A DNA stretch of 64,000 nucleotides, from positions 152,489-216,488 of the forward strand of contig CAWJQC010000004.1 of assembly GCA_963844965.1 (NCBI GenBank), read 5' to 3'. Positions 39,631 through 63,890 of the stretch are shown here, in pieces. The notes beneath the pieces are model-generated. The model was not told the origin of the DNA. It worked only from the letters and a program-made list of their open reading frames with translations, and ran no database searches. The DNA is from an uncultured bacterium. GTDB lineage: Bacteria; Patescibacteriota; Minisyncoccia; UBA6257; 2-01-FULL-56-20. Position 1 is the stretch's first letter. Each line of letters starts with the position of its first letter. Position numbers and translations under genes: made by a program.

Positions 39631-40573
39631 CTAATCCACAAATAATTTCTTTTTCAGTTTATGCGTATTGCCGTGACCAAGTAGCCCAAGGTACGACGCC
39701 CTCGTTTCTTCCGAAGGACCCCTGCTTAATCTTTTTATCATTCGCCGTTTCGTCGCGCTACGTAGTACGCGATGGTCTGGAAAATGAACCCAGCCGAGGA
39801 AATCGACGCCGGAAGCCAAGGTTTTTATAAAAACTTTCTGCGGATGCAGGCGCAAACGCAAGCGGTTCTCAAGAAAATTCCGAATTTTCGTGATTTGCGA
39901 TTCCAGCCAGGTACGGTCGGAGGAAAGAAAAACGAAGTCGTCGGCATAGCGGATGTAATATTCTGCTTTTAATTTGTGTTTTGCAAACTGGTCAAACTCA
40001 TTCATATAGACATTCACGAAAAGTTGCGAAGTCAGATTGCCGAGCGGCAGGCCTATGCCGGGCCTGCCGGAAGAAAAACTGCCTATAATTTCCCGGAGCA
40101 ACCAAAGAACATCGCCATCCGGTATGTAGGAAGAAAGAATCTCGAGCAAAATTGTGTGGTCGATGTTCGCGAAAAACTTCTTGATATCGCATTTCAGGAC
40201 CCAACAGGTTCTGGTATTGTCTGGCGCCGGACTTGCGTGCGAACGAACGGAAGCGGTCAAGTGCGGCGTGCGTGCCCTTGCCAACGCGGCAAGAAAACGA
40301 ATCGGCTATAAACGTCCGGTCAAAAAATGGGCGGAGGAGGCCGCAGATGGCATGGTGCAGAAAACGGTCGCGCACGCTCGCCTTATGGATATTCCTCGGC
40401 TTCGGGTCGCAGATATTGAACGCTTGATATCCGCCGTGGCGGTAGGTATGATTTATCAAATCGGCGCGGAGGGCGAAAAGATTGTCCATTAGACAGAACT
40501 GTAATTCCCGGACATCACGCTTGCCGCGCTTTCCTTTCAAAAACTCCGGCCAAGTTTCCAAAAAATTTTCCAT
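39631..40573 (-). CDS. Diversity-generating retroelement (DGR) reverse transcriptase, interrupted by one frameshift near 40215-40250
   Basis: N-terminus MENFLETWPEFLKGKRGKR…FNICDPKPRNIHKASVRDRFLHHAI…CRVGKGTHAALDRF. Motifs VLKCDIKKFFANIDH, GLPLGNLTSQLF (the DGR-diagnostic LGxxxSQ), YIRYADDFVF, HPQKVFIKTLASGVDFLGW. Confidence 0.85.
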
Positions 40574-40613
40574 TCCGGCGATTTTTTCCAAGCCGCCGCC
40601 AAATTGAGCTTTC

Positions 40614-40997
40614 ATGGACAAAAATTCACACGTAACCCCCCGACGGAGTAGCTTACCCATCATTCAACATCTTATCGCTACGTACAAACTTTGGCACGAA
40701 TTTTTGCCGCACGTACCGAAAGACGCCCGCTACACGTTGGGAAGCAAAATTGACGTCTCGCTCATAGAAACGATTGAGGCCGTTTTTTCGGCGAGCTATC
40801 TCGGCGGCGAGAAAAAATTACCGTATCTGCAAAGAGCCGCAGCCAAACTGGACCTTGTCAAATTCTTTCTGCAAACTCTCTGGGAAATCGGGGCGCTGGA
40901 CAATAAAAAGTACATAGTGCTTTCCGAAAAATTTGACGGGGTCGGAAAAATGCTCGGCGGCTGGTTGCGGCAATCTCAAAAACAAACTCCGGCTTGA
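40614..40997 (+). CDS. avd: DGR accessory variability determinant (Avd, four-helix-bundle family), divergent from the RT
   Basis: 127 aa. YKLWHEFLPHVPKDARYTLGSKIDVSLIETIEAV … AKLDLVKFFLQTLWEI … VGKMLGGWLRQ matches the bAvd/TIGR02436 pattern. Confidence 0.7.
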   Translation: MDKNSHVTPRRSSLPIIQHLIATYKLWHEFLPHVPKDARYTLGSKIDVSLIETIEAVFSASYLGGEKKLPYLQRAAAKLDLVKFFLQTLWEIGALDNKKYIVLSEKFDGVGKMLGGWLRQSQKQTPA

Positions 40998-41518: not shown

Positions 41519-42139
41519 CTACTTGCAGAAGGCGAGGAACCACCAGTCGTCGTGCCACCTGCCGCCCCAGTAGTTGAGGTCCAGCTCGCGGCTCGAGGCA
41601 CGGCCGTACAGGTACGCCACGCCGCGATCGTCGTTCGGGTCCTGCCAGGAATCGCCGAGGGCGGCTAACGGAAAATGGGCAGCCAGTTCGGCCGAATCGG
41701 GATTGGATTTAGAGAGATCCGCAAGTTCTTTCGGAATACCCGGTCGCAGACCCATCTTGTCCAGGCGAACGGCGGCGTCGTCGGACTCAACATACTCGCC
41801 GAAATTCACGAGAACCGCTTCGGCTTCAACCCGGCCCTTGCCGACAACTTTCTTGAAATTCTTGTCGGTCAGATTGGAGTTGACGTAGTTGAATCCGCTC
41901 GCCGTCTTGGCTTCGAGCGGCTCGTCATTGTTAATAATGACATGGAACACCGCGCGCTTCACGCGACCGACAATTTCCGCGACAAGGTCAACGATTTTGC
42001 CGAAGAGCGGACTCCCATCCTTCAACGCGTCGTAAAACTGTTCGTCGGATAAGCCGCGCTCCTGGCGCGCCCTATCCAAAGCGACCCAGAAACTCGCCGC
42101 AAATCCTGCTCCGCTTACCACCGTAGATGGTTTTGACAT
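41519..42139 (-). CDS. DGR target protein (variable protein) with a C-terminal variable region
   Basis: ~205 aa ending …DPNDDRGVAYLYGRASSRELDLNYWGGRWHDDWWFLAFCK. The last 40 codons form the VR. Confidence 0.8.
   Translation of the reverse strand: MSKPSTVVSGAGFAASFWVALDRARQERGLSDEQFYDALKDGSPLFGKIVDLVAEIVGRVKRAVFHVIINNDEPLEAKTASGFNYVNSNLTDKNFKKVVGKGRVEAEAVLVNFGEYVESDDAAVRLDKMGLRPGIPKELADLSKSNPDSAELAAHFPLAALGDSWQDPNDDRGVAYLYGRASSRELDLNYWGGRWHDDWWFLAFCK
41523..41649 (-). repeat. DGR variable repeat (VR) at the 3' end of the target gene
   Basis: See TR. A 25-nt 3'-terminal block (ttgcagaaggcgaggaaccaccagt on the plus strand) is identical to the TR, consistent with an IMH-like region. Confidence 0.9.
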
Positions 42140-42471
42140 GGCACTTCTCCTTTGGCGGCACACCCCTCGTTCCGGCAAATCGTGCTGTCGGAATCCCAGA
42201 TGAACCGCATGGTTACAGCTTTCAGCGCATATTGCCCCTCACGCGCTAAAAGCTGTAACCATTGCACAAGTAGTCATATTTTCAAGGTACGCCTTAATTA
42301 TACACCCAAACACTTATTGTGTCAAGAGCGCGTTTTGGGAACGACAGCAAGCCGCGCGTAATCCCAACCCCCGCCAAGCACAGCCACCAATTCACACCCC
42401 AACCCTCCTCAATTTCGCTTTCCTCCCGAACCCCGGTAGTAGAGCAAAGCTCACCACCGGGCTACGCACTT

Positions 42472-43269: not shown

Positions 43270-43345
43270 AGCGCGGAATTACGCGGACCAAACGCGGAAA
43301 TTCGCAGAAAATTATTTATATAACGACTCGCTCTTACTCTCATAT

Positions 43346-43366
43346 TTTCCTATTCGCGCGAATTAG
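43346..43366. promoter_or_regulatory. Operator-like palindrome attcgcgcgaat (second copy of the ArsR-box), ~80 bp upstream of murI and overlapping the arsR stop
   Basis: tattcgcgcgaattagaaa, near-identical to the 43646-43663 site. Confidence 0.4.
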
Positions 43367-43625
43367 AAATGGTAAGGATCAGCAATTTGACGACAGGAGG
43401 TAGCGGACTGGCCAAACGATAATAAACCGTCAAACTTTCCTGGCGGCGGTCTAAAATGTCCAGCTGGCGCAAGATGCCAAGATGCTTAGAGGTGGCGGTG
43501 AACGAAAGATTAATACCCCGGGCAATATCGGCCACCGAAACCTCTTTCTTCCTACCAAGAAGCCGGATAATTGCCAGTCGCCGCCGATTGGCTAACCCTT
43601 TAAAAATTTTCTCCAGCTGTTTCAT
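43350..43625 (-). CDS. ArsR/SmtB-family HTH transcriptional regulator
   Basis: 91 aa. LANRRRLAIIRLL…VSVADIARGINLSFTATSKHLGIL. Confidence 0.7.
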   Translation of the reverse strand: MKQLEKIFKGLANRRRLAIIRLLGRKKEVSVADIARGINLSFTATSKHLGILRQLDILDRRQESLTVYYRLASPLPPVVKLLILTISNSRE

Positions 43626-43645
43626 CTTTCCATCTTATCACTATT

Positions 43646-43663
43646 TTCTAATTCGCGCGAATT
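43646..43663. promoter_or_regulatory. Perfect 18-bp palindrome ctaattcgcgcgaattag, 21 bp upstream of the arsR-family gene. Putative autoregulatory operator.
   Basis: Perfect dyad read from the sequence. Confidence 0.5.
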
Positions 43664-43680
43664 AGAAAATGTAACAATCT

Positions 43681-44190
43681 TTAACCACTAGAAATAATTT
43701 CACTTCTAATTTCAAGAAAAAGTTTTTTTAACCTCTCCCACTGTTCGGCTTTCTCTTTTTCGTCGTGCGGAACCGTATTTTCAAGAAGTGAAACCGCCCA
43801 CCGTCCATTTCTCGCATTTATCCCCAACCGAGCCATACCAGGACTGGAAAGAGCTGATGGATAAAGACGGGTTGGTTGGGGGTAGACATAAAAGCGAAAC
43901 GGCTCCAGCGTCATCTCAAGTGGTTGCGGTTCTCGGTAGGTTTCTTTGTATTCATGCAAAAGCCGACTAACCGACCCCTCACAATGACCACGGAAATCTT
44001 CCTCGGCGCGTTGCTGTTTAATCAGATCAGCAGAAGATATCCGGCCGGCAAACTTGGCCATAAATACCATGACTTCTTCACGGCTTCCTGAAAACAATAT
44101 TACCCGGCGTTCGTCGCTTATCTCGTAGACAATTTTCTCCGTCTCCGCCTCGTTGCGATGCTGTTCAAATTCTTTTTTCATATACCCCAT
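43681..44190 (-). CDS. Hypothetical protein
   Basis: 169-aa ORF. The 5' UTR contains gtagtaa-type direct repeats. Confidence 0.4.
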   Translation of the reverse strand: MGYMKKEFEQHRNEAETEKIVYEISDERRVILFSGSREEVMVFMAKFAGRISSADLIKQQRAEEDFRGHCEGSVSRLLHEYKETYREPQPLEMTLEPFRFYVYPQPTRLYPSALSSPGMARLGINARNGRWAVSLLENTVPHDEKEKAEQWERLKKLFLEIRSEIISSG

Positions 44191-44222
44191 CTCCTTCCTT
44201 ACTACTTACTACCTACTACTTA

Positions 44223-45455
44223 CTATCCCATAATTTTTTTCCCGATATACTTTTGCAGCGCTTCCGGAACGTTCACTTTGCCGTCCTTCCTTTGGTAATT
44301 TTCCAGAATCGCTATTATTCCGCGCGAAGTGGCGATTGCCGTGCCGTTCAGTGTGTGCACGTATTCCGTCTTGCCGTCTTTTCTCCTAAACTTGATGCCG
44401 AGCCGCCTCGCCTGGAAATCGGTCGTGTTGGAAGTTGAAGTTATCTCTCCATATTCGCCCCGGCCCGGCATCCAGGCCTCAAGGTCAAACTTTCTCGCCG
44501 CCTGCGAACCCAAGTCGCCCGCGCACATTTCCACGGCGCGGTAAGGAATGCCCAAACCCTGCCAGAGTTTTTCCTCAAAGCCGAGGAATTTTTCGTGAAT
44601 GGACTGCGATTCCTCGGGCTTCGCGTAGGCGAACATTTCCACTTTCGTGAACTGATGAAGCCGGTAAAGGCCTTTGGAGTATTTCCCGTAAGCGCCGGCT
44701 TCCTGCCGGAAGCAGTGGGAATAACCGGCGTACAATTTCGGCAGGAAACTTTCTTCCAGCGTTTCGTCGGCGTGCATGCCGGCCAGAGTCACTTCTGCCG
44801 TGGCGATGAGTCCCAGATCGGAATTTTCTATGACGTAGGTCTGCGCTTCCGCGCCCTTCGGCTGGTAGCCGGTCCCCAGGTAAAATCTTTCACGGACCAA
44901 ATCCGGCGTAAACACAAGCTCAAAGCCGTTCTCGCTCAAAAAATCCAGAGCGTAGCGCACAAGGGCGAATTCCAAAAGAACGCCGTCGTTTTTCAAATAA
45001 TAAAAACCTGAGCCGGAGACCTTCGCCGCCGAATTGAAGTCAATGATGCCGAGTGATTCTCCTATTTCCACGTGGTCTTTCGGCTTAAAGTCAAATTCCG
45101 GCTTCTTACCGACCTCACGCATGACGACATTGTCGCGTTCGCTTTTGCCCGCCGGCACGATATCAAGCGGCGGATTCGGAATGGAGTAGATCAGAGTGAG
45201 CCGTTTCTTGTCCAGCTCCACGAGCTTCGTTTCCGCCTGTTTTATCGCTTCCTTGTTCTTTTTCGCTTCGTCAACTTTCCGCGCATCGCTCAATTTTTTC
45301 TGCTCGGCGCGCAGAGCGTCCAGTTCCGCCGTCGCCTCCCGCCATTCCGCGTCCGCCGCCAGAAATTCGTCAACAACCTTCGGATCGCCGCTCTTGGCGG
45401 CAATACCCTTTTTAATTTTCTCGGGGTCATCCCGTAAAAGTTTTATATCTATCAT
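44223..45455 (-). CDS. serS: Seryl-tRNA synthetase
   Basis: N-terminal coiled-coil arm (MIDIKLLRDDPEKIKKGI…) and class II core motifs. Confidence 0.85.
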   Translation of the reverse strand: MIDIKLLRDDPEKIKKGIAAKSGDPKVVDEFLAADAEWREATAELDALRAEQKKLSDARKVDEAKKNKEAIKQAETKLVELDKKRLTLIYSIPNPPLDIVPAGKSERDNVVMREVGKKPEFDFKPKDHVEIGESLGIIDFNSAAKVSGSGFYYLKNDGVLLEFALVRYALDFLSENGFELVFTPDLVRERFYLGTGYQPKGAEAQTYVIENSDLGLIATAEVTLAGMHADETLEESFLPKLYAGYSHCFRQEAGAYGKYSKGLYRLHQFTKVEMFAYAKPEESQSIHEKFLGFEEKLWQGLGIPYRAVEMCAGDLGSQAARKFDLEAWMPGRGEYGEITSTSNTTDFQARRLGIKFRRKDGKTEYVHTLNGTAIATSRGIIAILENYQRKDGKVNVPEALQKYIGKKIMG

Positions 45456-45691: not shown

Positions 45692-46705
45692 GTGAAAATT
45701 TTTAACGTCGGCGAGCTGATGTTCCAGCATATGGAAAGCATCGGTATCAACCTGAACAGGAAAAATATCCATCAGGTTTCGCCGCTCACGCGGCAGGTGG
45801 CAAGATCGGCAGTGCTCAAGGGCATCCTGGGTGAAATAACCTACGACTCGGGCAAATACGACGCCGTCGTAATCAACATCCACGCGCACTTTTACTGGGA
45901 CGACGTGTTAACCGAAGCATACGACACGTATCTCAATAATTTCCTGCGAGCAGAATGGAATCCACTCCTTGTGACTTTTATCAACGACTTCAGGCCGATA
46001 CTGCAACACCTCAAATCACGCGAACAGTGGAGGAATCAAAAACTGGATGCCCAAACCATCCTCAACTGGCAAAACAGCGAGGTCATGACAACGTCCATGC
46101 TCGCCAAGTTCGCCGGTAGGCAATTTGCTCCTGTCGCCACGACGCAATCGCCGGCGGAATTGTTCTATCCTCTGGTTTTTCATCCGGAGATCGAAACGGC
46201 TTATATTGCCACACCCATCTCGCACCTACGCGACGTGGAAGCCAGAAAACCGGTGGACGAGTTCATAGAAAAACTCCGTAAACTGCGACTGTTCGCGCTT
46301 TTCAACCCACTTTCCGTGGAAGTCGTCGGCGCCGTTCACTTCGACAAACACGAATCGACCGACGAAGATATACTCGTCTATCACCACATTGTGAACCGCG
46401 ATCTTTACTGGTTCGTGCGGAATAGCCAAAAGATAATCGTCTACTGGCCGAGGATCGCCGTGCCGAGAGAGGTTGAAGAAAATCCTGAGCTTTTCAAACG
46501 CTGGCCGGAAAGCGTGGCATCCCCCGGCGTTGACCACGAAACTCACGAGGGGTATGGCGAAGGAAAAGATGTCTGGGTGGTGTTCTGCGGCGATAAGACC
46601 AGCCCGTTCCTCGTCAAATACCGCACCGAGTTGTTCCTAGGAGAAGAGGAATTCTTCGGGTTCCTCAAAGAAAGATATCCCGACAGGAAGAACCTTGTCT
46701 GGTGA
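45692..46705 (+). CDS. Hypothetical protein
   Basis: 337-aa ORF with no recognisable motif. Confidence 0.4.
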   Translation: MKIFNVGELMFQHMESIGINLNRKNIHQVSPLTRQVARSAVLKGILGEITYDSGKYDAVVINIHAHFYWDDVLTEAYDTYLNNFLRAEWNPLLVTFINDFRPILQHLKSREQWRNQKLDAQTILNWQNSEVMTTSMLAKFAGRQFAPVATTQSPAELFYPLVFHPEIETAYIATPISHLRDVEARKPVDEFIEKLRKLRLFALFNPLSVEVVGAVHFDKHESTDEDILVYHHIVNRDLYWFVRNSQKIIVYWPRIAVPREVEENPELFKRWPESVASPGVDHETHEGYGEGKDVWVVFCGDKTSPFLVKYRTELFLGEEEFFGFLKERYPDRKNLVW

Positions 46706-46802: not shown

Positions 46803-47824
46803 ATGCCCGCCAAACAAGAAGTTTCTAAAATTGAAAACATCCGCCACTCTCTGTCCCATCTCCTTGCCGCCGCCGTCCTCAAGAAATTTCCGGATGCGAA
46901 GCTCGGCATCGGTCCGGTCATTGAGAACGGTTTCTATTATGATTTCCTCCTGCCGAGCCTGCCTGACGGCAGTCAGGGACACTTCGCGCCTGACGACCTC
47001 AAGGAACTTGAACGAACCATGCGGCAGCTCATAGCACAAAATTTGCCGTTCAGCGGCGAAAAACTGACGCCCGCCGCCGCCAAAAAACTTTTCAAAGACC
47101 AGCCATTCAAACTTGACCTCATCAAAGAATTCACCAAAGCAAAAGAACCGCTTTCAATCTACAAGACCGGCGACGCTTTTTTTGACCTTTGCAGTGGCGG
47201 TCACGTGGACAGCACTAAAGAAATAAATCCCGACGCCTTCAAGCTTGACCGGCTTGCCGGAGCCTACTGGCGCAGCGACGAAAAAAATCCGCAACTGCAA
47301 CGAATTTATGGCTTGGCGTTTGAAACGAAAGAGGAATTGGAAAAATACTTGAAGCTTGTTGAAGAAGCGCAAAAACGCGACCACAGAAAACTGGGTAAAC
47401 GTCTTGACTTGTTTACTTTTTCAGATATGGTCGGCAGCGGTCTCCCGCTTTGGACACCGAGAGGAGCTCTGGTCCGGGGATTGTTGAATGAATATGTAGA
47501 ATCGCTACAAGCAAAAGCCGGATATACCCAAGTTTGGACGCCGCAGATCGCGAAAGCGGAACTTTTCAAAACATCCGGCCACTACGATAAATACCGGGAA
47601 AGCATGTTCCGCGTAAAATCAAATTACTCCGACGAGGAATCTTTCTGAAACCCATGAATTGCCCCCAGCACACGCAGATCTATGCAAGCCAGCCGCGGAG
47701 CTACCGCGACTTGCCGCTGCGTTATACCGACTTCGCGATGCTCTACCGCGACGAAAAACCCGGCGAACTGAATGGCCTCGCGCGCGTCAGATCGTTCTCC
47801 CAGGATGACTGCCATATTTTCTGC
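46803..47824 (+). CDS. thrS: Threonyl-tRNA synthetase, N-terminal ~55% only. It has a frameshift near 47640-47655 and ends abruptly at the QDDCHIFC motif.
   Basis: TGS/second-additional-domain region, then [28 protein letters not shown]…[14 protein letters not shown] in a second frame. No continuation beyond 47824. Confidence 0.8.
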
Positions 47825-47829
47825 CACGG

Positions 47830-50223
47830 CCTTATTACGTCATGGAACTGGTGCGCGGCATCAAAATCACGGATTACTGTGACCAGAACAATCTTTCCAC
47901 GCGGGAACGGCTGGACCTGTTCATTCAAGTTTGCCAGGCCATCCAGCACGCGCACCAGAAAGGCGTCATCCATCGCGACATCAAGCCGTCGAATATCCTC
48001 GTCACTGTGAACGACGGCGTGCCCGTGCCCAAGGTCATTGACTTCGGCATCGCCAGGGCGACACAGGGACGGCTCACCGACAAAACTTTGTTCACCGCGT
48101 TCGAGCAATTCATCGGCACACCCGCCTACATGAGTCCCGAACAGGCGGTATTGACCAGTCTGGACATTGATACGCGCAGCGACATCTACAGCCTGGGCGT
48201 TCTGCTCTATGAATTGCTCACCGGCAAAACCCCCTTCGATGCGAATACCTTGCTTCAATCCGGGCTGGACTCGATGCGCCGCACGATTCGGGAAGTTGAA
48301 CCGCCGAAACCTTCAGCGCGGTTGAGCACGATGCTGGATGCCGAACGGGCGACCACGGCCAGCCACCGCCAGACGGAACCGCCCAAACTGATTCATCTGG
48401 TTCGCGGAGACCTGGACTGGATCGTGATGAAGTGCCTGGAGAAGGACCGCGGGCGGCGCTACGAGACGGCGAACGCCGTGGCGATGGACCTCCGGCGGCA
48501 TTTGAGTTGCGAACCGGTGCTCGCTTGTCCGCCCAGCCGGCTTTATGAGTTTCAAAAGACGGTCCGCCGCCACAAATTCGGCTTCGCGGCGGCGGCGGCA
48601 CTCATCACAGTGCTCGCGATCGGCGTGCTGGTGAGCTGGTCGGAAATGATACGGTCGCGGCGCGCGGAGCGGGAGCAAGCGCGTCTGCGCCAGCAAGCCC
48701 AGACCGAAGCGGCCAAGAGCCAGCAGGTGGCGCAGTTCCTCAAGGACATGCTCAACGGCGTCGGACCGAGCGTGGCGTTGGGTCGCGACACGACAATGCT
48801 GCGGGAGATTCTGGACAAGACCGCCGAGCGGGTGGGTAAAGACTTGAAAGACCAGCCGGATGTGGAAGCCAATCTGTGGAACACTCTCGGCGACGTTTAC
48901 TTGGATCTCGGCGAATATCAGAAAGCGGAAGCGATGCAGCGCGCGGGGTTGGCGATACGAATGAAACTGTTCGGCCACGAGAATTTGTACGTCGCCGTGT
49001 CGCTCTGGGGCTTGGCCGACGCGCTTCGGCGCAAAGGCAGCTTTGCCGAGTCGGAAACTTTGCTTCGTGATTCGCTAACGATTTTTAGAAAGCTGCGCGG
49101 TGATGAGAATCGGGACGTGGCCGCAGAGCTCTCCATGCTGGCCGACGTGCTCCGCTATGAAGGCAAGCTGGACGAGGCGGAGCCGATGCAACGGCAGGCG
49201 TTGTCCCTGAACAGGAAACTGTTCGGCAACAAAGATATAATGGTGGGTATTTCACTCAACAACCTGGCGCTGGTGCTCCGGTGGCAGGGCAAGTTCTCTG
49301 AAGCGGAAACGATGTTTCGCGAAGCGCTGGCGATATACAAAAAAGTGTTGGGCGACGAGGATCCAGAGATCGCCATTACCCTCGACAATCTGGCCAACGT
49401 GCTCCTCGACCAAGGCAGACTGACCGAGGCCGAAGCCACGTGTCGAGAGACGTTGGCAATGCGGAGAAAACTGCTGGGCAACGATCATCCAAAGGTGGCC
49501 GAGTCACTCAACAAACTGGCTTGGGTGCTTCAAAGGCAAGGCAAGCTGGCTGAAGCGGAAACGATGGTTCGCGAGGCGCTGGCGATGCTAAGAAAGTCGC
49601 AGGCCCGTGAGACTCCTGAGGCAGCCGACTTGCTCGGCAACCTGGCTTACCTTCTCCAAAGTGAGGGTAAGCTGAATGAGGCCGAAACCATGCAGCGCGA
49701 GGCGTTGATGATACAGAGAAGATTGCAGGGTGACGAGGGCCTGCGGGTGGGCGATTCGCTCGCCCAACTGACAGCCATCCTGCTTGACGAAAACAAATTT
49801 TCAGACGCCGAGCCGCCGGCTCGCGAGTGTCTGACCATAAGAGAGAAGATGATTCCTGATCTCTGGTGGACTTTCAACAGTCGTAGCCTGCTGGGCGGCA
49901 GTCTCCTGGGGCAGAAGAAATACGCGGAGGCCGAGCCGTTGCTCCTCTCCGGCTATGAGGGCATGAAACAACGCGAGGACAGGATTCCAGCGTATGGCAA
50001 GTTTCAACTGAAAAAGGCCCTTCAGCGCCTGGTGCAACTCTACGAAGCCACGGACCGACCCGATCAAGCCGCCCAATGGAAGCAGAAGCTGGCGGAGTTC
50101 GACAAGGCCGAAACCGGGAAGAAGGCCGACGCGCCCCAATCGCAGGCTGACGCCATCACTCCCGTCCTTCTGCCTGAAGCCAAAGCGCTGATCGAAGGTG
50201 AGGGCGCAGTCACCAGAAAGTAG
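47830..50223 (+). CDS. Ser/Thr protein kinase with the N-terminal lobe missing (starts at subdomain V), followed by a TM segment and a long TPR-repeat domain
   Basis: [15 protein letters not shown], catalytic loop [47 protein letters not shown], then at least 8 TPR-like repeats. Confidence 0.8.
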
Positions 50224-50558
50224 CGCAGGCGAGACTTGCCATGTTCAACATTCCGTCCGCCCTTCTTCAGACCCGGGCCGCTTCTTAAAAAAATCCTTCA
50301 TTTACCGCTTGATTTCGCGTCAATGGGCGTCCGTTCGTGATTCGAACTTCCCTCTGCAAATTAATTTGCGCCTTTGGCCCCGGAATTCCGCATTGGCTAA
50401 CGGTGGGCCAATCAGCTCACCCATTGAAAACGAAAAATTGCTGAAAAGGCACAATTATGAATGGCCTGAACCCTTCCCGAAAGCCGGCAGCCGTTCGGCA
50501 CGCCGGTGGTTACCTGTTCCTGCTGGCCGGTTTCCATCTTAGTCACATTCACAGGACA

Positions 50559-51701
50559 ATGCGGGCGGTCGTCTGCGCGCTTTGGGTTCTGACGACGGCT
50601 TCCTGCGCAGATGCCGCCGCCAGCCTCACCTCGCTACCCTGGGTGGGGGGCGACAATTTCAACTACAATACAACCGGCGTCAGCGGTGACGGCTCGGTCG
50701 TCGTTGGCACCAGCGGTTATGACACCTCCGGATACGGCGACTTCTACCAAGCCTTTCGCTGGACCGCTGGCTCTGGCAGCGTCGCCCTGGGCGGCAGTTA
50801 CAGCTACGCGAGCGGCGTCAGCGCCGACGGCTCGGTCATTGTCGGCTCAGGCTCCTCCACCTCCGGCAACCAAGCCTTCCGCTGGACCGCCGGTTCCGGC
50901 ATGGTTGGCTTGGGCCACCTGCCGGGCACCACGAACAGCACCGCCACCGGCGTCAGCGGCGACGGCTCGGTCGTCGTTGGCACAAGCTCCTCCGGCTCCG
51001 GCAGCCAAGCCTTCCGCTGGACCGTCGGCTCCGGCATGGTCAGCTTGGGCCACCTGCCGGGCGGCACGAACAGCTCCGCTGCCGGCGTCAGTGCCGACGG
51101 CTCGGTCGTCGTTGACACAAGTTCCTCCGCCTCCGGCGGCCAAGCCTTCCGCTGGACCGCTGGCTCCGGCATGGTCGGCTTGGGCTACCTGCCGGGCGGC
51201 AATTCCAGCAGCGCCACCGCCGTCAGCGGCGACGGCTCGGTCGTCGTAGGCAACGGCGTAGGCAATGATGGCTACGACGAAGCCTTCCGCTGGACCGCTG
51301 GCTCCGGCATGCAGAGCCTGTGGGACGTGCTGGCAACGAATGGCTTGAACTTTGACCCTGCCGAGCTGCTGATAGCCTCCGGCATCAGCGCCGACGGCAA
51401 CACGATCGTCGGCACCGACTACTTATCCACTTCCGATTACACCCTTGAGTTTGGCTTCGTCGCTACCCTGCCCGGGTTGATTGTGGGCAGCCCGGTGCTG
51501 AGTATCAACTCCTGGTCGTCCACAGCCCATCAGCTCGTGCTCTCCTGGAGCACGAACTACACGGGCTGCACGCTGCAAAGTTCAACCAACCTCGGCTCGA
51601 CGAATTGGACGGACTGCGCCAGCTCAGCCGTCTCGGGCGCCTCCTTCGTCGTCACCAATTCGATGTCCGTCGGCGCGCAATTCTTCCGGCTCAAGCGATG
51701 A
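50559..51701 (+). CDS. HAF-family extracellular repeat protein (5 tandem ~40-aa repeats) with a C-terminal β-sandwich-like tail
   Basis: Repeats QAFRWTAGSGMVGLGHLPGGTNSSATGVSGDGSVVVG are visible at the DNA level as ~120-bp tandem repeats. Signal peptide MRAVVCALWVLTTASCADA. Confidence 0.65.
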   Translation: MRAVVCALWVLTTASCADAAASLTSLPWVGGDNFNYNTTGVSGDGSVVVGTSGYDTSGYGDFYQAFRWTAGSGSVALGGSYSYASGVSADGSVIVGSGSSTSGNQAFRWTAGSGMVGLGHLPGTTNSTATGVSGDGSVVVGTSSSGSGSQAFRWTVGSGMVSLGHLPGGTNSSAAGVSADGSVVVDTSSSASGGQAFRWTAGSGMVGLGYLPGGNSSSATAVSGDGSVVVGNGVGNDGYDEAFRWTAGSGMQSLWDVLATNGLNFDPAELLIASGISADGNTIVGTDYLSTSDYTLEFGFVATLPGLIVGSPVLSINSWSSTAHQLVLSWSTNYTGCTLQSSTNLGSTNWTDCASSAVSGASFVVTNSMSVGAQFFRLKR

Positions 51702-51978
51702 AACACGACGAGCCGGTCAAGCGATATGATTTTCCCCGAGTGGAAAGGATGCGGGTCAAATGGAGATCGGTTGTCGCCGGAGCGGGCTGCGCCACCCTTT
51801 GCCTGTCCGCCCGGCCATCGCTGGCCGATGAACAGATGTTCGGCTTCACGCGCGGAAACATGAGCTGCGACCTCGCTGGCAAGAGTTTGACTTCCTTGTC
51901 ACAGACGCGGGAGGCCAGCGGTCAACAGCATAGTAGAACCAAATAATATAAGGAATATAAGAATAAAAACCTGAACCT

Positions 51979-53022
51979 ATGAAAACGAAATTCAAATCCA
52001 CCATTCGTGCCGCGTGTCAACCATTCGGCGCACCGGTCTGTGCGGGAGCGCTCCTGCTGATTGCCTCCAGCGCGCCGGCGCAGAATCTGTTTGTGACCCA
52101 ACAAGGCAACCCTGGTTACCCTTCCTTTGGCACCGATGGCGGCGTCACTGAAATCACGCCGGGCGGAGCGCAAAGCGCCTTTGCCACTGGGGTGTATGAT
52201 CCTCAAGGCCTGGCCTTTGACAGCGCAGGCAATCTGTTTGTGGCGGGTTTAGCCTACGGCAACATCTATGAGTTCACGCCGGGCGGAGTGCAAAGCACCT
52301 TTGCCTCCGGGTTGAGTGCTCCTGTGGGACTGGCCTTTAACAGCGCGGGCAATCTGTTTGAGGCGGATGAAGTCAGCGGCAACATCTATGAATTCACGCC
52401 GGGCGGAGTGCGAAGCACCTTTGCCTCCGGGTTGCCTGCTTATGGACCTATTGACCTGGCCTTTGATAGCGCGGGCAATCTGTTTGTCGCGAATGAAACC
52501 GGCAACACCATCATTGAAATCACGCCGGGCGGAGGGCAAAGCACCTTTGCCACTGGGTTGAGTGAACCTCGGGGACTGGCCTTTAACAGCGCGGGCAATC
52601 TGTTTGAGGCGGATGAAGGCAGCGGCAACATCTATGAGTTCACGCCGGGCGGAGGGCAAAGCACCTTTGCCTCCGGGTTGCCCGATCCTAATGGACTGGC
52701 CTTTAACAGTGCGGGTGATCTGTTTGAGGCGGATTACGGCAGCGGCAACATCTATGAATTCACGCCGGACGGAGCGCAAAGCACCTTTGCCTCCGGGGTG
52801 GGGGGTAGTCCGACCTTTCTCGCCTTTCAAGACGTAACCTTGCCCGTGCCGGAACCGTCGGCTTTGGGCTTGCTGGCCGTCGGCGTCACCGCACTCCTCG
52901 TCCGCCGCCGCCCAAGCTGGCCGCTGGTTCAGCCTCCTTCTGGTATTGGCTTACTGAGTTACATGCGGGCGCGAAAAGGCAATTTCCTATCAGTGAAAGG
53001 AAGAATTAAATGCATCGTTTGA
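51979..53022 (+). CDS. NHL-like β-propeller repeat protein (6 × ~42 aa) with a PEP-CTERM sorting signal
   Basis: Repeats GNIYEFTPGGxQSTFASGLxxPxGLAFNSAGNLFEAD. C-terminus VPEPSALGLLAVGVTALLVRRR. Confidence 0.7.
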   Translation: MKTKFKSTIRAACQPFGAPVCAGALLLIASSAPAQNLFVTQQGNPGYPSFGTDGGVTEITPGGAQSAFATGVYDPQGLAFDSAGNLFVAGLAYGNIYEFTPGGVQSTFASGLSAPVGLAFNSAGNLFEADEVSGNIYEFTPGGVRSTFASGLPAYGPIDLAFDSAGNLFVANETGNTIIEITPGGGQSTFATGLSEPRGLAFNSAGNLFEADEGSGNIYEFTPGGGQSTFASGLPDPNGLAFNSAGDLFEADYGSGNIYEFTPDGAQSTFASGVGGSPTFLAFQDVTLPVPEPSALGLLAVGVTALLVRRRPSWPLVQPPSGIGLLSYMRARKGNFLSVKGRIKCIV

Positions 53023-54176
53023 ACTTACTTCATCGTGCCAAGGTCGCGACTTTGGCAGGTGCTGCATTGCGAAGCACTCGAAGGTCGCTGGTTCCAGCAT
53101 CGGTAGTGGCGCTGTTGGGTATGGCCATTCCCGCGCATGCCCTCGTGATCAATCCGACCTTTGACAGTTCGTTGACAAACCTCGCAAACGCGGCGCAGTG
53201 GGAATCTGCAATCAACTATGCTGACGGGCAATTTGCGTCGCTTTTCACCAACCCGATTACCATTAACATTACGTTCAAGGCCGGTGCGATCCCAGGCTAC
53301 CTCGGACAAAATCGCTTCAACGGTCAATCCATTGGCAATTATGCCACCGTGAAGGCGGTTCTGGCCGCTCATGCCAAGTCGCCCGATGACGCCACCTCGA
53401 TTGCCAATCTTCCGATTTCAGATCCGACTGGCGGTGGGAACTTTATATTGGCGGACGCTCAGGCGAAGGCTTTGGGTGTTCGTGCCGCCAATAACCCAAG
53501 CACGGATGGCAACATCACGCTTAGTTATCTCTATTCCTACACATTCGACCCCAACAATCGGGCGGTCAGCGGTTCCTACGATTTCATCGGCAGCGCGGAA
53601 CATGAAATCTCCGAGGTCATGGGTCGAGTGGGAAATGCAAACATCGATGGCGGCAATTTCGGAGTCCTTGACTTGTTCGGGTATCAATTCGGCGCAGGCG
53701 GCACGGGTACCGGAGTCCTCAACCTTGCCCAGAACCAGGACAATAATTATTTCTGCATAGACGGCGGTATCACGCCCCTGAAACTCTACAACAACCACGC
53801 CAACGGCGAAGACGATAAGGATTGGGGCCCCGGAACCGACGACTCCTTTAATGCATACTCTTATTCCGGCGTTGCCAACTTGATGTCGCCAGTGGACATC
53901 CGTGAGATGGACGTGATCGGCTACGACCTGGCCATTCCTGAGCCGACTTCCCTTGCCATCATCACCACCAACGCGGCGTTTGGCTTCACGGGCGGCGTGT
54001 TTGGTTTCGACGTGTCCGGCCCATCCGGCACCAACGTGGTCATTCAGGCCAGCACGGACCTGCAAACCTGGATTCCGCTGCAAACCAATCTGCTCGGCAG
54101 CGGGCCGCTCTATTTCTCCGATCCGCAGTCCACCACCAACGTCCAGCGTTTCTACCGCGCCCAATTATCGCCTTAA
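53010..54176 (+). CDS. Secreted hypothetical protein. Its C-terminal ~60 aa resemble the tail of the HAF-repeat protein.
   Basis: Signal peptide. Shared tail pattern LQxSTNL…W…(F)YR(A/L). Confidence 0.5.
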   Translation: MHRLNLLHRAKVATLAGAALRSTRRSLVPASVVALLGMAIPAHALVINPTFDSSLTNLANAAQWESAINYADGQFASLFTNPITINITFKAGAIPGYLGQNRFNGQSIGNYATVKAVLAAHAKSPDDATSIANLPISDPTGGGNFILADAQAKALGVRAANNPSTDGNITLSYLYSYTFDPNNRAVSGSYDFIGSAEHEISEVMGRVGNANIDGGNFGVLDLFGYQFGAGGTGTGVLNLAQNQDNNYFCIDGGITPLKLYNNHANGEDDKDWGPGTDDSFNAYSYSGVANLMSPVDIREMDVIGYDLAIPEPTSLAIITTNAAFGFTGGVFGFDVSGPSGTNVVIQASTDLQTWIPLQTNLLGSGPLYFSDPQSTTNVQRFYRAQLSP

Positions 54177-54286
54177 AGCCTGATGTTTTATCGGCTCCAA
54201 CAATGAAATGGACGGCGTGAAGTTGCGGGTTGCGCAGATGCCCAATTTTCTGGCAAAACGCCGGAGAATCTGGTATTAGTCGCTGA

Positions 54287-54853
54287 TTGAGCGACGTCAC
54301 CCGCATTCTGGAGTCCATCGAGCACGGCGACCCCAAGGCCGCCGATGAACTGCTGCCGCTGGTTTATGGCGAACTGCGCAAGCTCGCGGCATCGCGCATG
54401 GCCAACGAAGCACCCAACCAAACGTTGCAACCCACCGCGCTCGTGCATGAAGCCTGGCTGCGGCTGGTCGGCAACACGGAACCAAAATTTGAAAATCGCG
54501 CGCATTTTTTCGCTGCCGCCGCCGAGGCGATGCGCCGCATCCTCATTGACAAGGCTCGCCGCAAACGCGCCGTGCGTCATGGCGGCGATCAGCAGCGCGT
54601 GGACTTGGAAGATGTGGAAGTTGCCGCGCCGGGCGACGACGACGAACTCCTCGCTGTAAACGAAGCGCTCGACAAACTCGCCGCGCAGAACAAGCTTGAA
54701 GCCGAATTGGTGAAGCTGCGTTACTTCGTTGGCATGACCCTCGAAGAAGCTGCCGAAGTGCTGGGCATCTCCGCCCGCACCGCCGACAACTACTGGGCCC
54801 ACGCCCGCGCCTGGCTCTTTCGTGAGATTAACGCCGCTCGAACAACCGGCTAA
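54287..54853 (+). CDS. ECF-type RNA polymerase sigma factor (Planctomycetes/Verrucomicrobia Gob-type, TIGR02999-like)
   Basis: N-terminus TRILESIEHGDPKAADELLPLVYGELRKLA. Region 4 LVKLRYFVGMTLEEAAEVLGISARTADNYWAHARAWL. Confidence 0.8.
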   Translation: MSDVTRILESIEHGDPKAADELLPLVYGELRKLAASRMANEAPNQTLQPTALVHEAWLRLVGNTEPKFENRAHFFAAAAEAMRRILIDKARRKRAVRHGGDQQRVDLEDVEVAAPGDDDELLAVNEALDKLAAQNKLEAELVKLRYFVGMTLEEAAEVLGISARTADNYWAHARAWLFREINAARTTG

Positions 54854-54859
54854 TCTTTC

Positions 54860-55144
54860 CGGTGGTAAGACCTCGCCCGACAACTTGCGCCACGACAGCC
54901 CGAACCAGTCGGCGGCGCGGCGATGCTCAAGGCGCTCGCCGGACCGTTCGCGCACACGGGCGTCAAGTTCGTCCCCACCGGCGGCATCAACGCCGCGAAT
55001 CTGCCGGAATATCTGGCGATTCCGCAGGTCGCGGCCATTGGCGGTTCCTGGATGGCCGAACGCAAACTGGTCGTGGAAAAGGCGTGGTCGAAAATCACCG
55101 CCCTGACCGCTGAAGCGATGAAAGTTGTTGCGCAGGCAAAGTAG
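54860..55144 (+). pseudogene. eda: C-terminal remnant of KDPG/KHG aldolase (Eda)
   Basis: MLKALAGPFAHTGVKFVPTGGINAANLPEYLAIPQVAAIGGSWM matches the Eda C-terminus. No upstream aldolase sequence is present. Confidence 0.6.
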
Positions 55145-55242
55145 CGCAGGCGTCCCGCCTGCCAGCGAACGCTCAGCACGAGCGTCAAAAAATTATTTGC
55201 GCCAGTCTTTGTATGACACGCAGGCGAGACGCCTGCGCTACA

Positions 55243-57648
55243 TTAATTCCCAATCGTCACCTGCAACGGCGCAGCGCGGCGTTCGGCAAAGCGGCGAACA
55301 TAATCCTCCCACTGAACGTGATTCGTGAAATCGCCGCTGCGATCCCAGCACGCACCGAAGTAATACGAGAACGGCTGGCCAAGCTCGGCCTGCGAAATTG
55401 CGAGCAGATCACGGATTGGCGGCGCGCCTTCGTGTGTCGGTTGCGGCACCACGGCATGGATTTTTGACTCCGGCATGTCCGGAACGTCATTCGTAAATGC
55501 CTCCACGCTGCCCTTTGCCAAAACAATAGCATCGCCGATGATGCCTTTCGGTTTGTCTTCCGGTTGCCAATAACTCATCCAGCCTTCACTTTGGTCATGT
55601 GCGATGAATTCTTCGCGGTTGGTGGGGCACGCGCGCTCGGCCAGCCCGATACCAATGGTCAGCGGCGAATTGGTTTCGCTGCTGAACGTGCTTTGCGCCT
55701 TGGTGAACCACGAGCCGGCGTCAATGCTGTAGCGTTTGGTTTCGGAAACTTTCCGACCGTTGCCGGCATCCCAGGCGTCATAGGTCAATTCAAACTCCGA
55801 CCGGATCGGGCCGGTGGTAATCAGCCGCCAGTTGCGGTAATTGCTGGAGACATAAAGTTTTTGGCCGTCCCAGATGCCCACACCGCCGCAACCGCGGCTT
55901 TTGCCCACGCGGTAATCGTCCATGAACTCGCCGTTATCCTCGTGATAATGCTTGGTGGCATACATCACGTCCACGATGAGGCCGCGGTTCTTTTTGATCC
56001 AGACATCCGGGCCGCTGCTGATGGTCCCCTCACCCTTGATGAGCGCCTGGCCGTAGGTGCGGTGCGCGATGCGGTCGCTTTCCCACGCGAAATCGTCCAT
56101 CCGTTCCGGCACATAACGCGCCAACGTCTTCACAATCGGCGGCGGCACGGCGACCAGGGGGGAAAGCTCCATAATGTAAAACGTCCGCGTCTCGCCCGGC
56201 GCAAGGTCAACCTGGAAAACTAATTTGTCCGGAATTGAATTTGATTCGCTGGCATAACATTGCGAAGTCAATATGCGTGAGGAAAGGCCGTCCATCACCT
56301 TCAAATCGCCCAATATCTGAACCGGCTGTAAATATATCCTGAGGTCGGGCAAATTAATTTCGACCGTCTCAACGTCGCGACGGAAGTTCGCCGGATTCGT
56401 CACTTTAACCACCGCTGGCTTTTCGTTTTCCAAAACCGCCATCCGATAAACCTCGCTGCCCGCAAGCAAAAAGGCACCGACTCCGAAAGGGGCGGTCGAA
56501 TCGTCCATGAATTTCTTCGGGTCGCTGCCGACCGGCTGAACGTGCGTCAATTTGCCGTCGGCATCCACACAGCCGACCAGCGCCGCCCACGCTTTGCGGA
56601 CGGCGGGTTCAAATTTTGCGCGGTCAAGCAGGCCCTGATTCACGCCCCAAGCCAGTGCGTAGGTGTAAAAACCGGAACCGCTGGTTTCTTTGAGCGGATA
56701 GCTTTCCGGGTCGAGCAGGCTCGCGCGCCAGAGTCCGTCCGGCTGCTGGCACGACAGGATTTTTTCCGCCATGTCCTTGAACAGTTGCTCAAAACGCGTA
56801 CGGTCGGGATGGTTCGTCGGCAGGTATTGCAGCACGCGGACGAGGCCGGCCATCACCCAGCCGTTGCCGCGCGCCCAGAAGACTTTTTTTCCGTTCGCCT
56901 CGCGCTTTTTGAAAAAAGTGCTGTCGCGGAAAAAGAGATGCTCGTCCTTGTCGTAAAGATAATCCGCTGTGCGCCACCAGTTCGTCACGGCAAAATCAAG
57001 GTAGCGCGAATCGTCCGTCGCCGCGTAAAGCCGCACCCACGTCGGCGGCCCCATGAACAACGAGTCGCACCACGACCAGTTTTCGCGCGCCTTGCTCTGC
57101 GGCTTCGTGAACTCAAGGCTCTGCACTTCAGTGGGTTTGGCGAGAATGGCGTCAAATTTTTCGCGCAGCGGCGCGATCATCTTGTTTTCGCGGTAGAGAA
57201 AATAAAGCTCCGCCCAGGTCTGGCCGATGCAATGGTCGTCGGCATCGTAAAGCCGGGTCTCCAGTTTCCATTGGTTGGTCTCGCCGAGCGCCAGCATGGC
57301 GTCCCGATATTTGGCGTCGCCGGAAATTCCCGCCAGCGCCATCATGCCGGCGTCGCCCGCCGCCTGAATCCAGCCGGTGGCCGCGTTGGTCAAAGGATTC
57401 GCCAGTTGCCAGTCCGCCACGCGCTGCATCGCCTTGAGAACGGCGTGTGGCGTAATCTGAGATGAAAGCGGCATGATGAGTGCGCCTTCCAAGCGTTCGT
57501 GATGGATATTCGGCTGCTCCAAATTGGGCGGCACCTGCGGCGTTGGTGTAATAATGTCTGGCGCGGGCTGCTGCGCACACAGTTGGAAATTGGTCAAGAA
57601 CAGAATTGCCGCCATGAACCTGGCGGAACGAGTGAGAGGATTTTTCAT
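55243..57648 (-). CDS. Glycoside hydrolase family 105 (unsaturated rhamnogalacturonyl hydrolase-like) fused to a C-terminal DUF4861 domain. Secreted.
   Basis: WARGNGWVMAGLVRVLQYLPTNHPDR. Signal peptide. ~330-aa C-terminal extension. Confidence 0.65.
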   Translation of the reverse strand: MKNPLTRSARFMAAILFLTNFQLCAQQPAPDIITPTPQVPPNLEQPNIHHERLEGALIMPLSSQITPHAVLKAMQRVADWQLANPLTNAATGWIQAAGDAGMMALAGISGDAKYRDAMLALGETNQWKLETRLYDADDHCIGQTWAELYFLYRENKMIAPLREKFDAILAKPTEVQSLEFTKPQSKARENWSWCDSLFMGPPTWVRLYAATDDSRYLDFAVTNWWRTADYLYDKDEHLFFRDSTFFKKREANGKKVFWARGNGWVMAGLVRVLQYLPTNHPDRTRFEQLFKDMAEKILSCQQPDGLWRASLLDPESYPLKETSGSGFYTYALAWGVNQGLLDRAKFEPAVRKAWAALVGCVDADGKLTHVQPVGSDPKKFMDDSTAPFGVGAFLLAGSEVYRMAVLENEKPAVVKVTNPANFRRDVETVEINLPDLRIYLQPVQILGDLKVMDGLSSRILTSQCYASESNSIPDKLVFQVDLAPGETRTFYIMELSPLVAVPPPIVKTLARYVPERMDDFAWESDRIAHRTYGQALIKGEGTISSGPDVWIKKNRGLIVDVMYATKHYHEDNGEFMDDYRVGKSRGCGGVGIWDGQKLYVSSNYRNWRLITTGPIRSEFELTYDAWDAGNGRKVSETKRYSIDAGSWFTKAQSTFSSETNSPLTIGIGLAERACPTNREEFIAHDQSEGWMSYWQPEDKPKGIIGDAIVLAKGSVEAFTNDVPDMPESKIHAVVPQPTHEGAPPIRDLLAISQAELGQPFSYYFGACWDRSGDFTNHVQWEDYVRRFAERRAAPLQVTIGN

Positions 57649-57703
57649 GGTGAATGCCTAATCGGATGCAGATGCGATTTTAAATGTCGAACAGATAAAA
57701 TGG

Positions 57704-58960: not shown

Positions 58961-59234
58961 AAGTGGTTTCGATGGAATTACCAGACTTTGGCTGCGTGAC
59001 CAAATGAATTTTCACGCCCCCCCCGGAGCGCGAGTTGTCTCAACTCGCAGCTGGTGCCACTGCCAAGGGAACGTTCAAAAATATGGTTGGATGATTTGCG
59101 TTTGTGAGTGCTGCGGTTTGGGACAAACCGCGCTCCGCATCAGACCGAGTTCTGGTCGCGGGGGGCAACGCCTTAAGTCCTTCTCGTCCTCGATGATTCA
59201 AAGAGTTTTTGAGGACGTGAACAATGATGAGACT

Positions 59235-60017: not shown

Positions 60018-60080
60018 GATTTGGGTTTGGGTTTTTAATTTAAATCTCAAAAAAATTAACGCCGTTGGATGCACGAAATG

Positions 60081-60285
60081 GCTTCGCCCTCACCCTGACC
60101 CTCTCCCCTCCGTCTTCGCTGCGCTTCGACGCGATCGCGCCGAAGCCAAAGGCGAAGGCGGACAAGGAGAGGGAACAGCCTGTGGATGATTCTTGAACTT
60201 TCAACACTGTCCGCAACGCCAACCGACTGACGACCATTCTCCCTCTCCCCAAGGGAGCGGGCCGGGGTGAGGGGAAAAGCAACGT
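60081..60285. repeat. GC-rich palindromic/REP-like intergenic element between kduI and kduD
   Basis: Extended imperfect hairpin (ccctctcccctccgtcttcgc … gcgaaggcggacaaggagaggg) with a central gcttcgacgcgatcgcgccgaagc palindrome. A related ccctcaccc/ggggtgagggg block follows. Confidence 0.35.
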
Positions 60286-60316
60286 CGTTCATTTCTGCAA
60301 GTTCAAAACCTGATAT

Positions 60317-61150: not shown

Positions 61151-61174
61151 GTTGTCAGCCTTACAAAAAAACAA

Positions 61175-63758: not shown

Positions 63759-63795
63759 AGGTTTGGGAGATTAAGAGTAAGATTATGATTATCGA

Positions 63796-63858: not shown

Positions 63859-63890
63859 GTTTTTGGTTGTGGCGCGGTCGCAGATTAAAC

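Follow-up and report, generated by a model that had tools for sequence, protein, structure and literature searches.

The window analyzed here, a stretch of DNA 64,000 nucleotides long, contains a site at which a fragment of thrS runs directly into a fragment of a Ser/Thr protein kinase gene. This raises the question of whether the junction belongs to the genome of one bacterium or whether two genomes have been joined. The original prediction took it for a probable chimeric join, and this reading is supported by the truncation of both genes, a composition change-point, the taxa on the two sides, an independent contig (L001), the synteny of CPR relatives and the lack of a mobile-element signature. 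Judging from these sequence comparisons, we put the probability that the junction is an artefactual inter-genome chimeric join in a deposited metagenome contig at roughly 94%. Coordinates are given in Table 1.

Table 1. Features at and around the thrS-kinase junction (positions in the 64-kb window)
Feature	Position	Strand	Basis or remarks
Left block, Patescibacteria (CPR)-like, GC ~0.50	1-47824	.	Gene relatives, tetranucleotides
thrS 5' part, 281-aa called product P0121	46803-47648	+	Premature stop from 1-nt frameshift
thrS frameshift site	47636-47648	+	Three-frame translation, alignment, tblastn frame switch
thrS middle part, class II core	47642-47824	+	91-97% protein identity to relatives; cut at 47824
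Breakpoint	47825-47826	.	Dinucleotide CA, assignable to neither parent
Ser/Thr protein kinase gene, 5'-truncated, with TPR repeats	47827-50223	+	Pkinase, TPR_12/TPR_10
Right block, Verrucomicrobiota-like, GC ~0.59	47827-64000	.	Genes, kinase relatives, composition

The junction site and its reading frames

The switch from thrS to kinase homology is at 47825/47826, inside both genes. The original prediction stated that there is neither spacing nor intergenic DNA between the two, and in fact only the two bases CA separate the homologies; the C may still belong to thrS, as the start of its native Arg codon. The kinase frame is offset by +2 from the thrS frame, and a TGA is present in the kinase frame at 47806 to 47808. 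Past the junction, the thrS frame remains open for 62 codons, which are out-of-frame kinase sequence, and reaches a stop at 48008 to 48010. With thrS cut, the kinase without its ATP-binding N-lobe and the two frames different, nothing is predicted to function across the join.

Sequence comparison at the junction indicates that the parents share at most 1 to 2 nt there. In register with L001, the 300 nt upstream of 47827 are 24% identical, while the sequence from 47827 on is 95.9% identical (BLAST). We looked for repeats flanking the junction and for microhomology of more than 1 to 2 nt and found none. A search at the junction for an integrase, an att-like feature, a tRNA, a promoter or a terminator was also negative; the adjoining genes are thrS and the kinase gene, and the sole tRNA in the window is at 20163 to 20236. 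There are no Ns in the window. An 11-mer across the junction occurs again at 38525, which we judge to be a chance match, since ~0.7 matches of this kind would be expected from the words tested. A 35-mer spanning the junction has no match in the JGI metagenomes, which is a weak result, since both organisms are without close relatives there. The boundary of a genomic island was considered and rejected, as there is no recombinase, att site or repeat at the junction.

The two truncated genes

The 5' part of thrS encodes a tRNA_SAD domain (Pfam, E = 2.6e-11). In tblastn with six ThrRS relatives, 46803/46821 to 47666 is matched in frame 3, after which the match switches to frame 2. The frame switch is at about 47642 to 47648, which is ~180 bp upstream of the junction, and there is a short T-run at the site. 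In one frame the site reads ...SDEESF followed by a stop, and the relatives read ...S(E/K)EE(F/L)(F/Y)LKPMNCPQH. This 1-nt frameshift was absent from the original prediction.

Alignments with six full-length Patescibacteria ThrRS proteins (580 to 589 aa) all end at 47824, at residue 328 to 338, and therefore the fragment is ~58% of a ThrRS. The original prediction had the right end point with a slightly different share (~55%). Beyond 47824, all six relatives read REDQVD..., and the window reads HGLITSWN. The Pfam tRNA-synt_2b domain is matched at profile positions 16 to 73 of 179 only, and the anticodon-binding domain is absent. Among the best 120 of 8000 matches, the nearest full-length relatives of the ThrRS are from Patescibacteria (70 to 76% identity), which is consistent with the earlier description of the upstream DNA as CPR-like. 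In close CPR relatives (72 to 76% identity), thrS is intact (580 to 582 aa) and lies upstream of miaA-gatB-rplK-nusG-secE-gyrB, and the 64-kb window contains none of these downstream genes. The uninterrupted state of the left flank is known only through these homologues, and since the best ThrRS relative is only 76% identical, the native continuation of thrS in the left-hand organism is predicted from homologues alone. The lineage-specific gene upstream of thrS (45692 to 46705) has no relatives in the JGI metagenomes.

On the right side, the kinase is kept from subdomain V (the hinge) onward, in a frame other than that of thrS and without the N-lobe, as originally predicted; its start is at 47827 (RPYYVMELV) rather than at ~47830. 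The Pfam Pkinase domain is matched at profile positions 77 to 259 of 263, and because the match begins only at position 77, we conclude that the N-lobe is missing. In all, ~158 residues are absent from the N terminus. The largest kinase ORF starts at the ATG at 47842 and encodes 793 aa, which is protein P0001. An independent contig, L001 (GCA_052915765.1, JBLFKO010289839.1), carries a complete kinase of 930 aa, and residues 159 to 930 of P0002 align with the window kinase at 95%. Bases 752 to 3532 of L001 are 95.9% identical to window positions 47827 to 50608, and the first 751 bp of L001 are not present anywhere in the 64-kb window. Thus, for the right flank, there is an independent assembly that runs uninterrupted through the position of the breakpoint.

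Among the best 120 of 8000 matches in the protein search, the best relatives of the kinase are from Verrucomicrobiota. Its relatives in GTDB species representatives are mainly from Verrucomicrobiota (Limisphaerales, Pedosphaera), followed by Planctomycetota, with at most 57% identity over the full length and 80% for L054 when only the kinase domain is compared. A search for a near-identical N-lobe fragment of the kinase on another contig gave 82% identity at best, in a ranking in which short fragments come low. No Logan fragments of the two junction genes turned up in cluster look-ups, and a literature search for JBLFKO and ERR10755942 found no papers.

Composition and gene content of the two blocks

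The taxa are discordant across the junction, with Patescibacteria for the best ThrRS matches on the left and Verrucomicrobiota for the best kinase matches on the right. The original prediction also reported a shift in composition, and the GC content indeed rises from ~0.50 to ~0.59. The tetranucleotide correlation between the left and right sides is 0.83. Most 4-kb windows have a correlation of ~0.9 or more with their own side, with exceptions that include a low-GC island. Left-block windows correlate with the left reference at 0.71 to 0.97, which is in every case above their correlation with the right reference. When Markov models are trained outside 44 to 51 kb, the log-likelihood change-point peaks at 47822 (support 47643 to 47909), which coincides with the gene-level breakpoint at 47825/6.

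The left block contains the housekeeping genes lepA, IMPDH, alr, a racemase, serS and a DUF4012 protein gene, as well as a mobile/defence region at ~6.5 to 20.2 kb. All of the PEP-CTERM, HAF, ECF sigma and GH105/kdu genes that had been predicted downstream were found. In addition to the kinase, the right block encodes a HAF-repeat protein, an NHL/PEP-CTERM protein, an NF038122 metalloprotease, a PF07638 ECF sigma factor, two GH88/105 proteins, KduD, KduI and a frameshifted acetolactate synthase. PEP-CTERM, HAF and the PF07638 sigma factor occur on the right side only, with none among the left-side proteins scanned. The right block makes up 16.2 kb of the window, and the second boundary of an insertion would fall outside it.

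P0121 (100% identical), P0001 and proteins from 3.4 kb to 57.6 kb are all on the same 216,488-bp NCBI/ENA contig. Since gene fragments and proteins of both sides are on one deposited contig, the join is therefore in the public record. Logan contigs of run ERR10755942, recovered for 14.8 to 18.8 kb and 43.3 to 44.7 kb only, match the window at 14769 to 18753 (99.85%) and at 43344 to 44688 (99.93%), and this run holds the left organism. Four genes across both sides are split by frameshifts: lepA, a reverse transcriptase (RT) gene (profile positions 31 to 120 and 121 to 273 in separate pieces), thrS and the acetolactate synthase gene. That such genes occur on both sides suggests an indel-prone, probably long-read, assembly.

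Origin of the join and comparison with known systems

Based on these results, we conclude that the junction is almost certainly an artefact of assembly rather than a real genomic feature. Bases 1 to 47824 would come from the genome of a member of the Patescibacteria (CPR) and bases 47827 to 64000 from that of a member of the Verrucomicrobiota, and a chimeric read (arising by ligation or in silico) or a false end-to-end join may have bridged the two organisms. Inter-genome translocations are the commonest class of metagenome misassembly, with ~65% of breakpoints within coding sequences (PMC9661791). Chimeric reads make up at least 1.7% of nanopore reads and cause misassemblies (PMC7967992), and long-read metagenome assemblies have been reported to contain inter-lineage chimeric contigs (bioRxiv 10.1101/2019.12.17.879148). 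A blunt join without shared sequence, together with frameshifts on both sides, points to the indel-prone, probably long-read, kind of assembly. Speaking against an artefact, a blunt and repeat-free join differs from the usual appearance of a de Bruijn-graph misassembly.

Within the artefact reading, a smaller share goes to a graph-based misassembly (short-read de Bruijn or repeat collapse) or to an end-to-end merge or N-free scaffold join made after assembly, which would differ from a chimeric long read in mechanism alone. Short-read metagenome assemblers make inter-genome translocations more often than any other error (PMC9661791), both genes stop as they would at contig ends, and the window is free of Ns. 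However, a graph-based error requires a shared k-mer, and the 1 to 2 nt at most that the parents have in common, with no repeat nearby, do not provide one; moreover, four frameshifted conserved genes per 64 kb are unusual in short-read assemblies. The idea that ThrRS and kinase form a natural fusion gene, or the product of a programmed frameshift, can be given almost no weight. The absence of intergenic DNA and the 62 open codons of the thrS frame are what such a fusion might look like, but the kinase is read in another frame, which has a stop upstream, the ThrRS core breaks off at profile position 73 of 179 and lacks an anticodon-binding domain, the kinase has no N-lobe, and the combined architecture is absent among the best 120 of 8000 matches in both searches. 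Frame and domain analysis thus refutes this candidate; the original prediction had likewise called a natural fusion implausible, and both the different frames and the truncation of both domains bear this out.

A real junction is a very unlikely explanation. It would call for a very recent inter-phylum integration, either of at least 16 kb of Verrucomicrobiota DNA into the thrS gene of a CPR bacterium or of at least 47.8 kb of CPR DNA, for instance from an episymbiont, into the kinase gene of a verrucomicrobium. In its favor, the deposited contig that carries the junction is long (216 kb), illegitimate recombination can yield blunt joins free of microhomology, and there are mobile-element genes elsewhere in the left block (6.5 to 20 kb). 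Yet such an event would knock out thrS, a gene that is normally essential and present in a single copy, and neither an integrase, att site or tRNA nor a repeat is found at the boundary. Furthermore, the right block consists of ordinary chromosomal DNA (acetolactate synthase, pectin catabolism, PEP-CTERM proteins, an ECF sigma factor) of unameliorated composition, its collinearity with a native Verrucomicrobiota contig starts at the very first base, and the junction has no match in JGI metagenomes. Slightly less probable still is that the window represents the genome of a single cell with tens of kilobases from another phylum, e.g., a fragment of a CPR episymbiont in the chromosome of its Verrucomicrobiota host, or the reverse. 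If this were true, the integration would be so recent that composition is unameliorated and two broken genes are still visible.

As an artefactual join, the junction matters as a warning about data quality and not as biology, in that one 216-kb NCBI/ENA contig mixes two phyla. Binning the contig as one organism would attribute pectin catabolism, PEP-CTERM proteins and a PVC-type ECF sigma factor to a CPR bacterium or, conversely, CPR genes to a verrucomicrobium, and would invite false claims of horizontal transfer. The truncated proteins P0001 and P0121 have already entered protein databases through the join. We recommend splitting the contig at 47825/47826, and because lepA, the RT gene, thrS and the acetolactate synthase gene are split, caution is needed for gene calls across the whole contig.

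Compared with the inter-genome translocation class of metaMIC (PMC9661791), the junction is alike in that two unrelated genomes are present in one contig, the breakpoint falls in coding sequence and disrupts genes, and both taxonomy and composition change there. Classical short-read cases of that class differ in arising at sequence common to both genomes, and no shared k-mer or repeat is found here. A genomic island or ICE insertion would likewise bring an abrupt shift in GC content and tetranucleotides and foreign gene content. In contrast to such an insertion, neither direct repeats nor a target-site duplication mark the boundary in the window, which also lacks an integrase, a tRNA and an att site; two genes are cut in mid-domain, and the supposedly "foreign" DNA is housekeeping chromosome, collinear with a free-standing Verrucomicrobiota contig at 96% identity. 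The chimeric long reads that are carried into assemblies, whether from ligation, from in silico nanopore chimeras or from MDA (PMC7967992; PMC9984789), resemble the junction in being blunt, free of homology and arbitrary in position, and probably also, if the proposed mechanism is right, in a surrounding consensus where indels of a single base break up genes to the left and to the right.

Two truncated genes at the junction

When six full-length Patescibacteria ThrRS (580 to 589 aa) were compared with the window by tblastn, all six alignments ended exactly at 47824, at residue 328 to 338 of the query. Past this point all six relatives read REDQVD..., and the window instead reads HGLITSWN. Pfam matched the class II core in the thrS fragment over profile positions 16 to 73 of 179 only and did not find the anticodon-binding domain in this fragment. 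Upstream of its end, thrS contains a 1-nt frameshift at ~47642 to 47648, where one frame reads ...SDEESF* and the next reads [10 protein letters not shown]..., continuing in the new frame to ...[14 protein letters not shown] at the last base. A Ser/Thr kinase with a long TPR tail is read from 47827 ([18 protein letters not shown]...) in a frame different from that of thrS, and only 47825 to 47826 (CA) fits neither gene. The Pkinase match starts at profile position 77 of 263, which indicates that the N-lobe is missing. The original prediction that thrS homology stops at 47824 and that a kinase with no N-lobe begins in another frame at ~47830, with no intergenic DNA, was therefore borne out, with a kinase start at 47827. 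The kinase frame is closed upstream by TGA at 47806 to 47808 and its earliest possible start is ATG at 47842; the thrS frame stays open across the junction and reads the kinase sequence out of frame until it meets a stop at 48008 to 48010.

Protein database searches gave Patescibacteria enzymes as the nearest full-length ThrRS (70 to 76% identity; names include Patescibacteria group, Paceibacterota, Minisyncoccota, Colwellbacteria and similar), and the named kinase matches are Verrucomicrobiota. Kinase relatives in GTDB representative genomes are mainly Verrucomicrobiota (Limisphaerales, Pedosphaera, and Verrucomicrobiia), followed by Planctomycetota. Nothing closely related to the left-hand organism turned up in the collections searched. 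In the two closest fetchable CPR relatives (contigs L082 and L083), native thrS is intact and is followed by miaA, gatB, rplK-nusG-secE, and gyrB, none of which is within the window.

Besides the window's own product, the closest kinase is the intact homologue P0002 (95%, 930 aa), and the next matches have ≤69% identity. The gene for P0002 lies on L001, a 3,533-bp contig (JBLFKO010289839.1) of metagenome assembly GCA_052915765.1. Positions 752 to 3532 of L001 align with 47827 to 50608 at 95.9% identity with one gap, an alignment that runs from the kinase across the intergenic region into the beginning of the HAF gene. L001 positions 1 to 751, which comprise 277 upstream bp and the entire N-lobe, have no match anywhere in the window, and neither do P0002 residues 1 to 158. 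In-register identity is 24% across the 300 nt preceding 47827, and the two upstream regions have no common word longer than 12 nt. Neither missing gene half was recovered; for the kinase N-lobe, the best match on another contig had 82% identity. Four N-lobe-only kinase products (P0242, P0246, P0248, and P0271; 190 to 270 aa) come from public contigs of great length (92 kb to 1.1 Mb), a hint that assemblies with long contigs often contain this kinase family in truncated or frameshifted form.

Composition and gene content of the two sides

GC content is ~0.50 before the junction and 0.59 after it. Tetranucleotide signatures give a correlation of 0.83 between the two sides, compared with ~0.9 or more for most 4-kb windows against their own side. 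With third-order Markov models trained on 20 to 44 kb and 51 to 64 kb, the cumulative log-likelihood ratio peaks at 47822 (2-lnL support interval, 47643 to 47909), so that the compositional breakpoint and the gene-level breakpoint at 47825/47826 coincide. We found no direct or inverted repeats around the junction, no microhomology beyond 1 to 2 nt at it, and no recombinase near it; the sole tRNA in the window is at 20.2 kb. The interval from 47.3 to 48.3 kb contains no terminator-like site, and its only promoter-like matches are ~400 to 500 bp upstream of the junction, within thrS. The junction 35-mer had no match in JGI metagenome contigs.

Genes on the left side include serS, alanine racemase, Asp/Glu racemase, IMPDH, lepA, a DUF4012 protein, and many orphan ORFs. 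The right side encodes a HAF-repeat protein, an NHL/PEP-CTERM protein, an NF038122 metalloprotease, a PF07638 ECF sigma factor, two GH88/105 enzymes (one fused to DUF4861), KduD, KduI, and acetolactate synthase. This gene content agrees with a Patescibacteria/Verrucomicrobiota split. The original prediction had named both the composition shift and the right-side PEP-CTERM, HAF, ECF sigma, and GH105/kdu genes, all of which were found, and one of the checks that it proposed, taxonomic best matches for each side, returned Patescibacteria for ThrRS and Verrucomicrobiota for the kinase. Separately, a candidate integrative or mobilisable element may occupy ~6488 to 20251 in the CPR-like block; it would comprise the two large serine recombinases, the relaxase-like protein, and the coupling protein listed below, and it ends adjoining tRNA-Gly(CCC).

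Features of the window by position
Feature	Position	Strand	Detail
Large serine recombinase	6488-7906
Replic_Relax relaxase-like protein	8313-9185
TraG/TrwB-type coupling protein	9991-11583
Low-GC (0.38-0.40) defence island	13757-18373	-	901-aa PHP+ATPase protein (PADLOC Ppl model match, 1.2e-33); type II N4/N6 DNA methyltransferase; Tsp45I-family restriction enzyme (5.6e-126)
Large serine recombinase	18647-20251		ORF overlaps the tRNA on the opposite strand
tRNA-Gly(CCC)	20163-20236
996-aa ORF	23971-26961	-	No match in Pfam, NCBIfam, PADLOC
lepA	29949-31855	-	GTPase domain 31055-31855; domains III to C-terminus 29949-31091
Reverse transcriptase, putatively group-II-type	39631-40663	-	In the Patescibacteria-like block; profile 31-120 in 39998-40663, 121-273 in 39631-40284; best matches group II intron RT/maturase and generic/defence-type RT models (Drt3a, UG4, UG17)
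219-aa ORF	41519-42178	-	No match in Pfam, NCBIfam, PADLOC
328-aa ORF	45719-46705	+	Just upstream of thrS; no match in Pfam, NCBIfam; no relatives in JGI metagenomes
thrS fragment	46803-47824	+
thrS frameshift	47636-47648	+	Two-frame split
Acetolactate synthase large subunit	61829-63758	-	N-terminal TPP domain 62745-63758; profile 226-554 in 61829-62965

Consensus quality and the deposited record

Four conserved genes, distributed over both sides of the join, are split by frameshifts into two overlapping or adjacent ORFs (lepA, the reverse transcriptase, thrS, and acetolactate synthase), which suggests consensus indel errors rather than pseudogenes. Consensus error accounts better than decay for this density of single-base indels in conserved or essential genes of two different organisms, which suggests a long-read assembly. 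Run ERR10755942 includes essentially the same left-hand organism: its independent Logan contig L084 matches 14769 to 18753 at 99.85% with no gaps, and a Logan contig from the same run matches 43344 to 44688 at 99.93%, the sole difference being one single-base indel in a G-run. Among the window proteins checked, Logan has exact sequences for two on the left side and for 0 of 4 on the right; a third left-side protein is represented by fragments of 55 and 77 aa only. These numbers are too small for a conclusion.

P0001 (793 aa) matches the kinase fragment exactly, as P0121 (281 aa) does the thrS 5' fragment; each has a single record, on a deposited contig of 216,488 bp (NCBI, ENA). Exact look-ups place the proteins at 3.4, 17.6, 42.5, 43.7, 44.2, 45.7, 50.5, 53.0, and 55.2 kb on a contig of equal length. 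The window is therefore part of a single deposited contig, whose public record includes both the join and the thrS frameshift.

Origin of the join

Judging from sequence, we consider it very probable (roughly 0.94) that this is an inter-genome chimeric contig, in which Patescibacteria DNA (1 to 47824) was joined artefactually to Verrucomicrobiota DNA (47827 to 64000) and across which nothing would function. The Verrucomicrobiota segment, of which 16.2 kb is visible, presumably extends past 64000. The chimeric join that had been proposed at the outset is supported by the mid-domain cuts, the coinciding breakpoints, the discordant taxa, and the native kinase on L001. Genuine inter-phylum integration is highly improbable: it would have had to destroy thrS, its boundary carries no mobile-element signature, and the DNA is ordinary chromosome, collinear from its first base with a separate contig from Verrucomicrobiota. 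The differing frames and the truncation of both domains exclude a natural ThrRS-kinase fusion and a programmed frameshift alike.

Because the join is blunt, with no common k-mer, and the consensus is indel-prone, the artefact would more likely have arisen when two ends were falsely joined or when a long read was itself chimeric. A distinctly smaller share of the artefact probability goes to a scaffold merge or to an error in a short-read graph; a graph- or repeat-mediated join requires a common k-mer, and none was found. With the join read as artefactual, the junction does not represent a genuine feature of any genome and is useful chiefly as a curation flag: we recommend splitting the contig at 47825/47826 and treating its gene calls as frameshift-prone. 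Inter-genome chimeras are the commonest class of metagenome misassembly, and their breakpoints are usually in coding sequence (PMC9661791). Chimeric nanopore reads, formed by ligation or in silico, make up at least 1.7% of data and are a known source of misassembly (PMC7967992), and evident inter-lineage chimeric contigs are reported from long-read metagenome assemblies (bioRxiv 10.1101/2019.12.17.879148).
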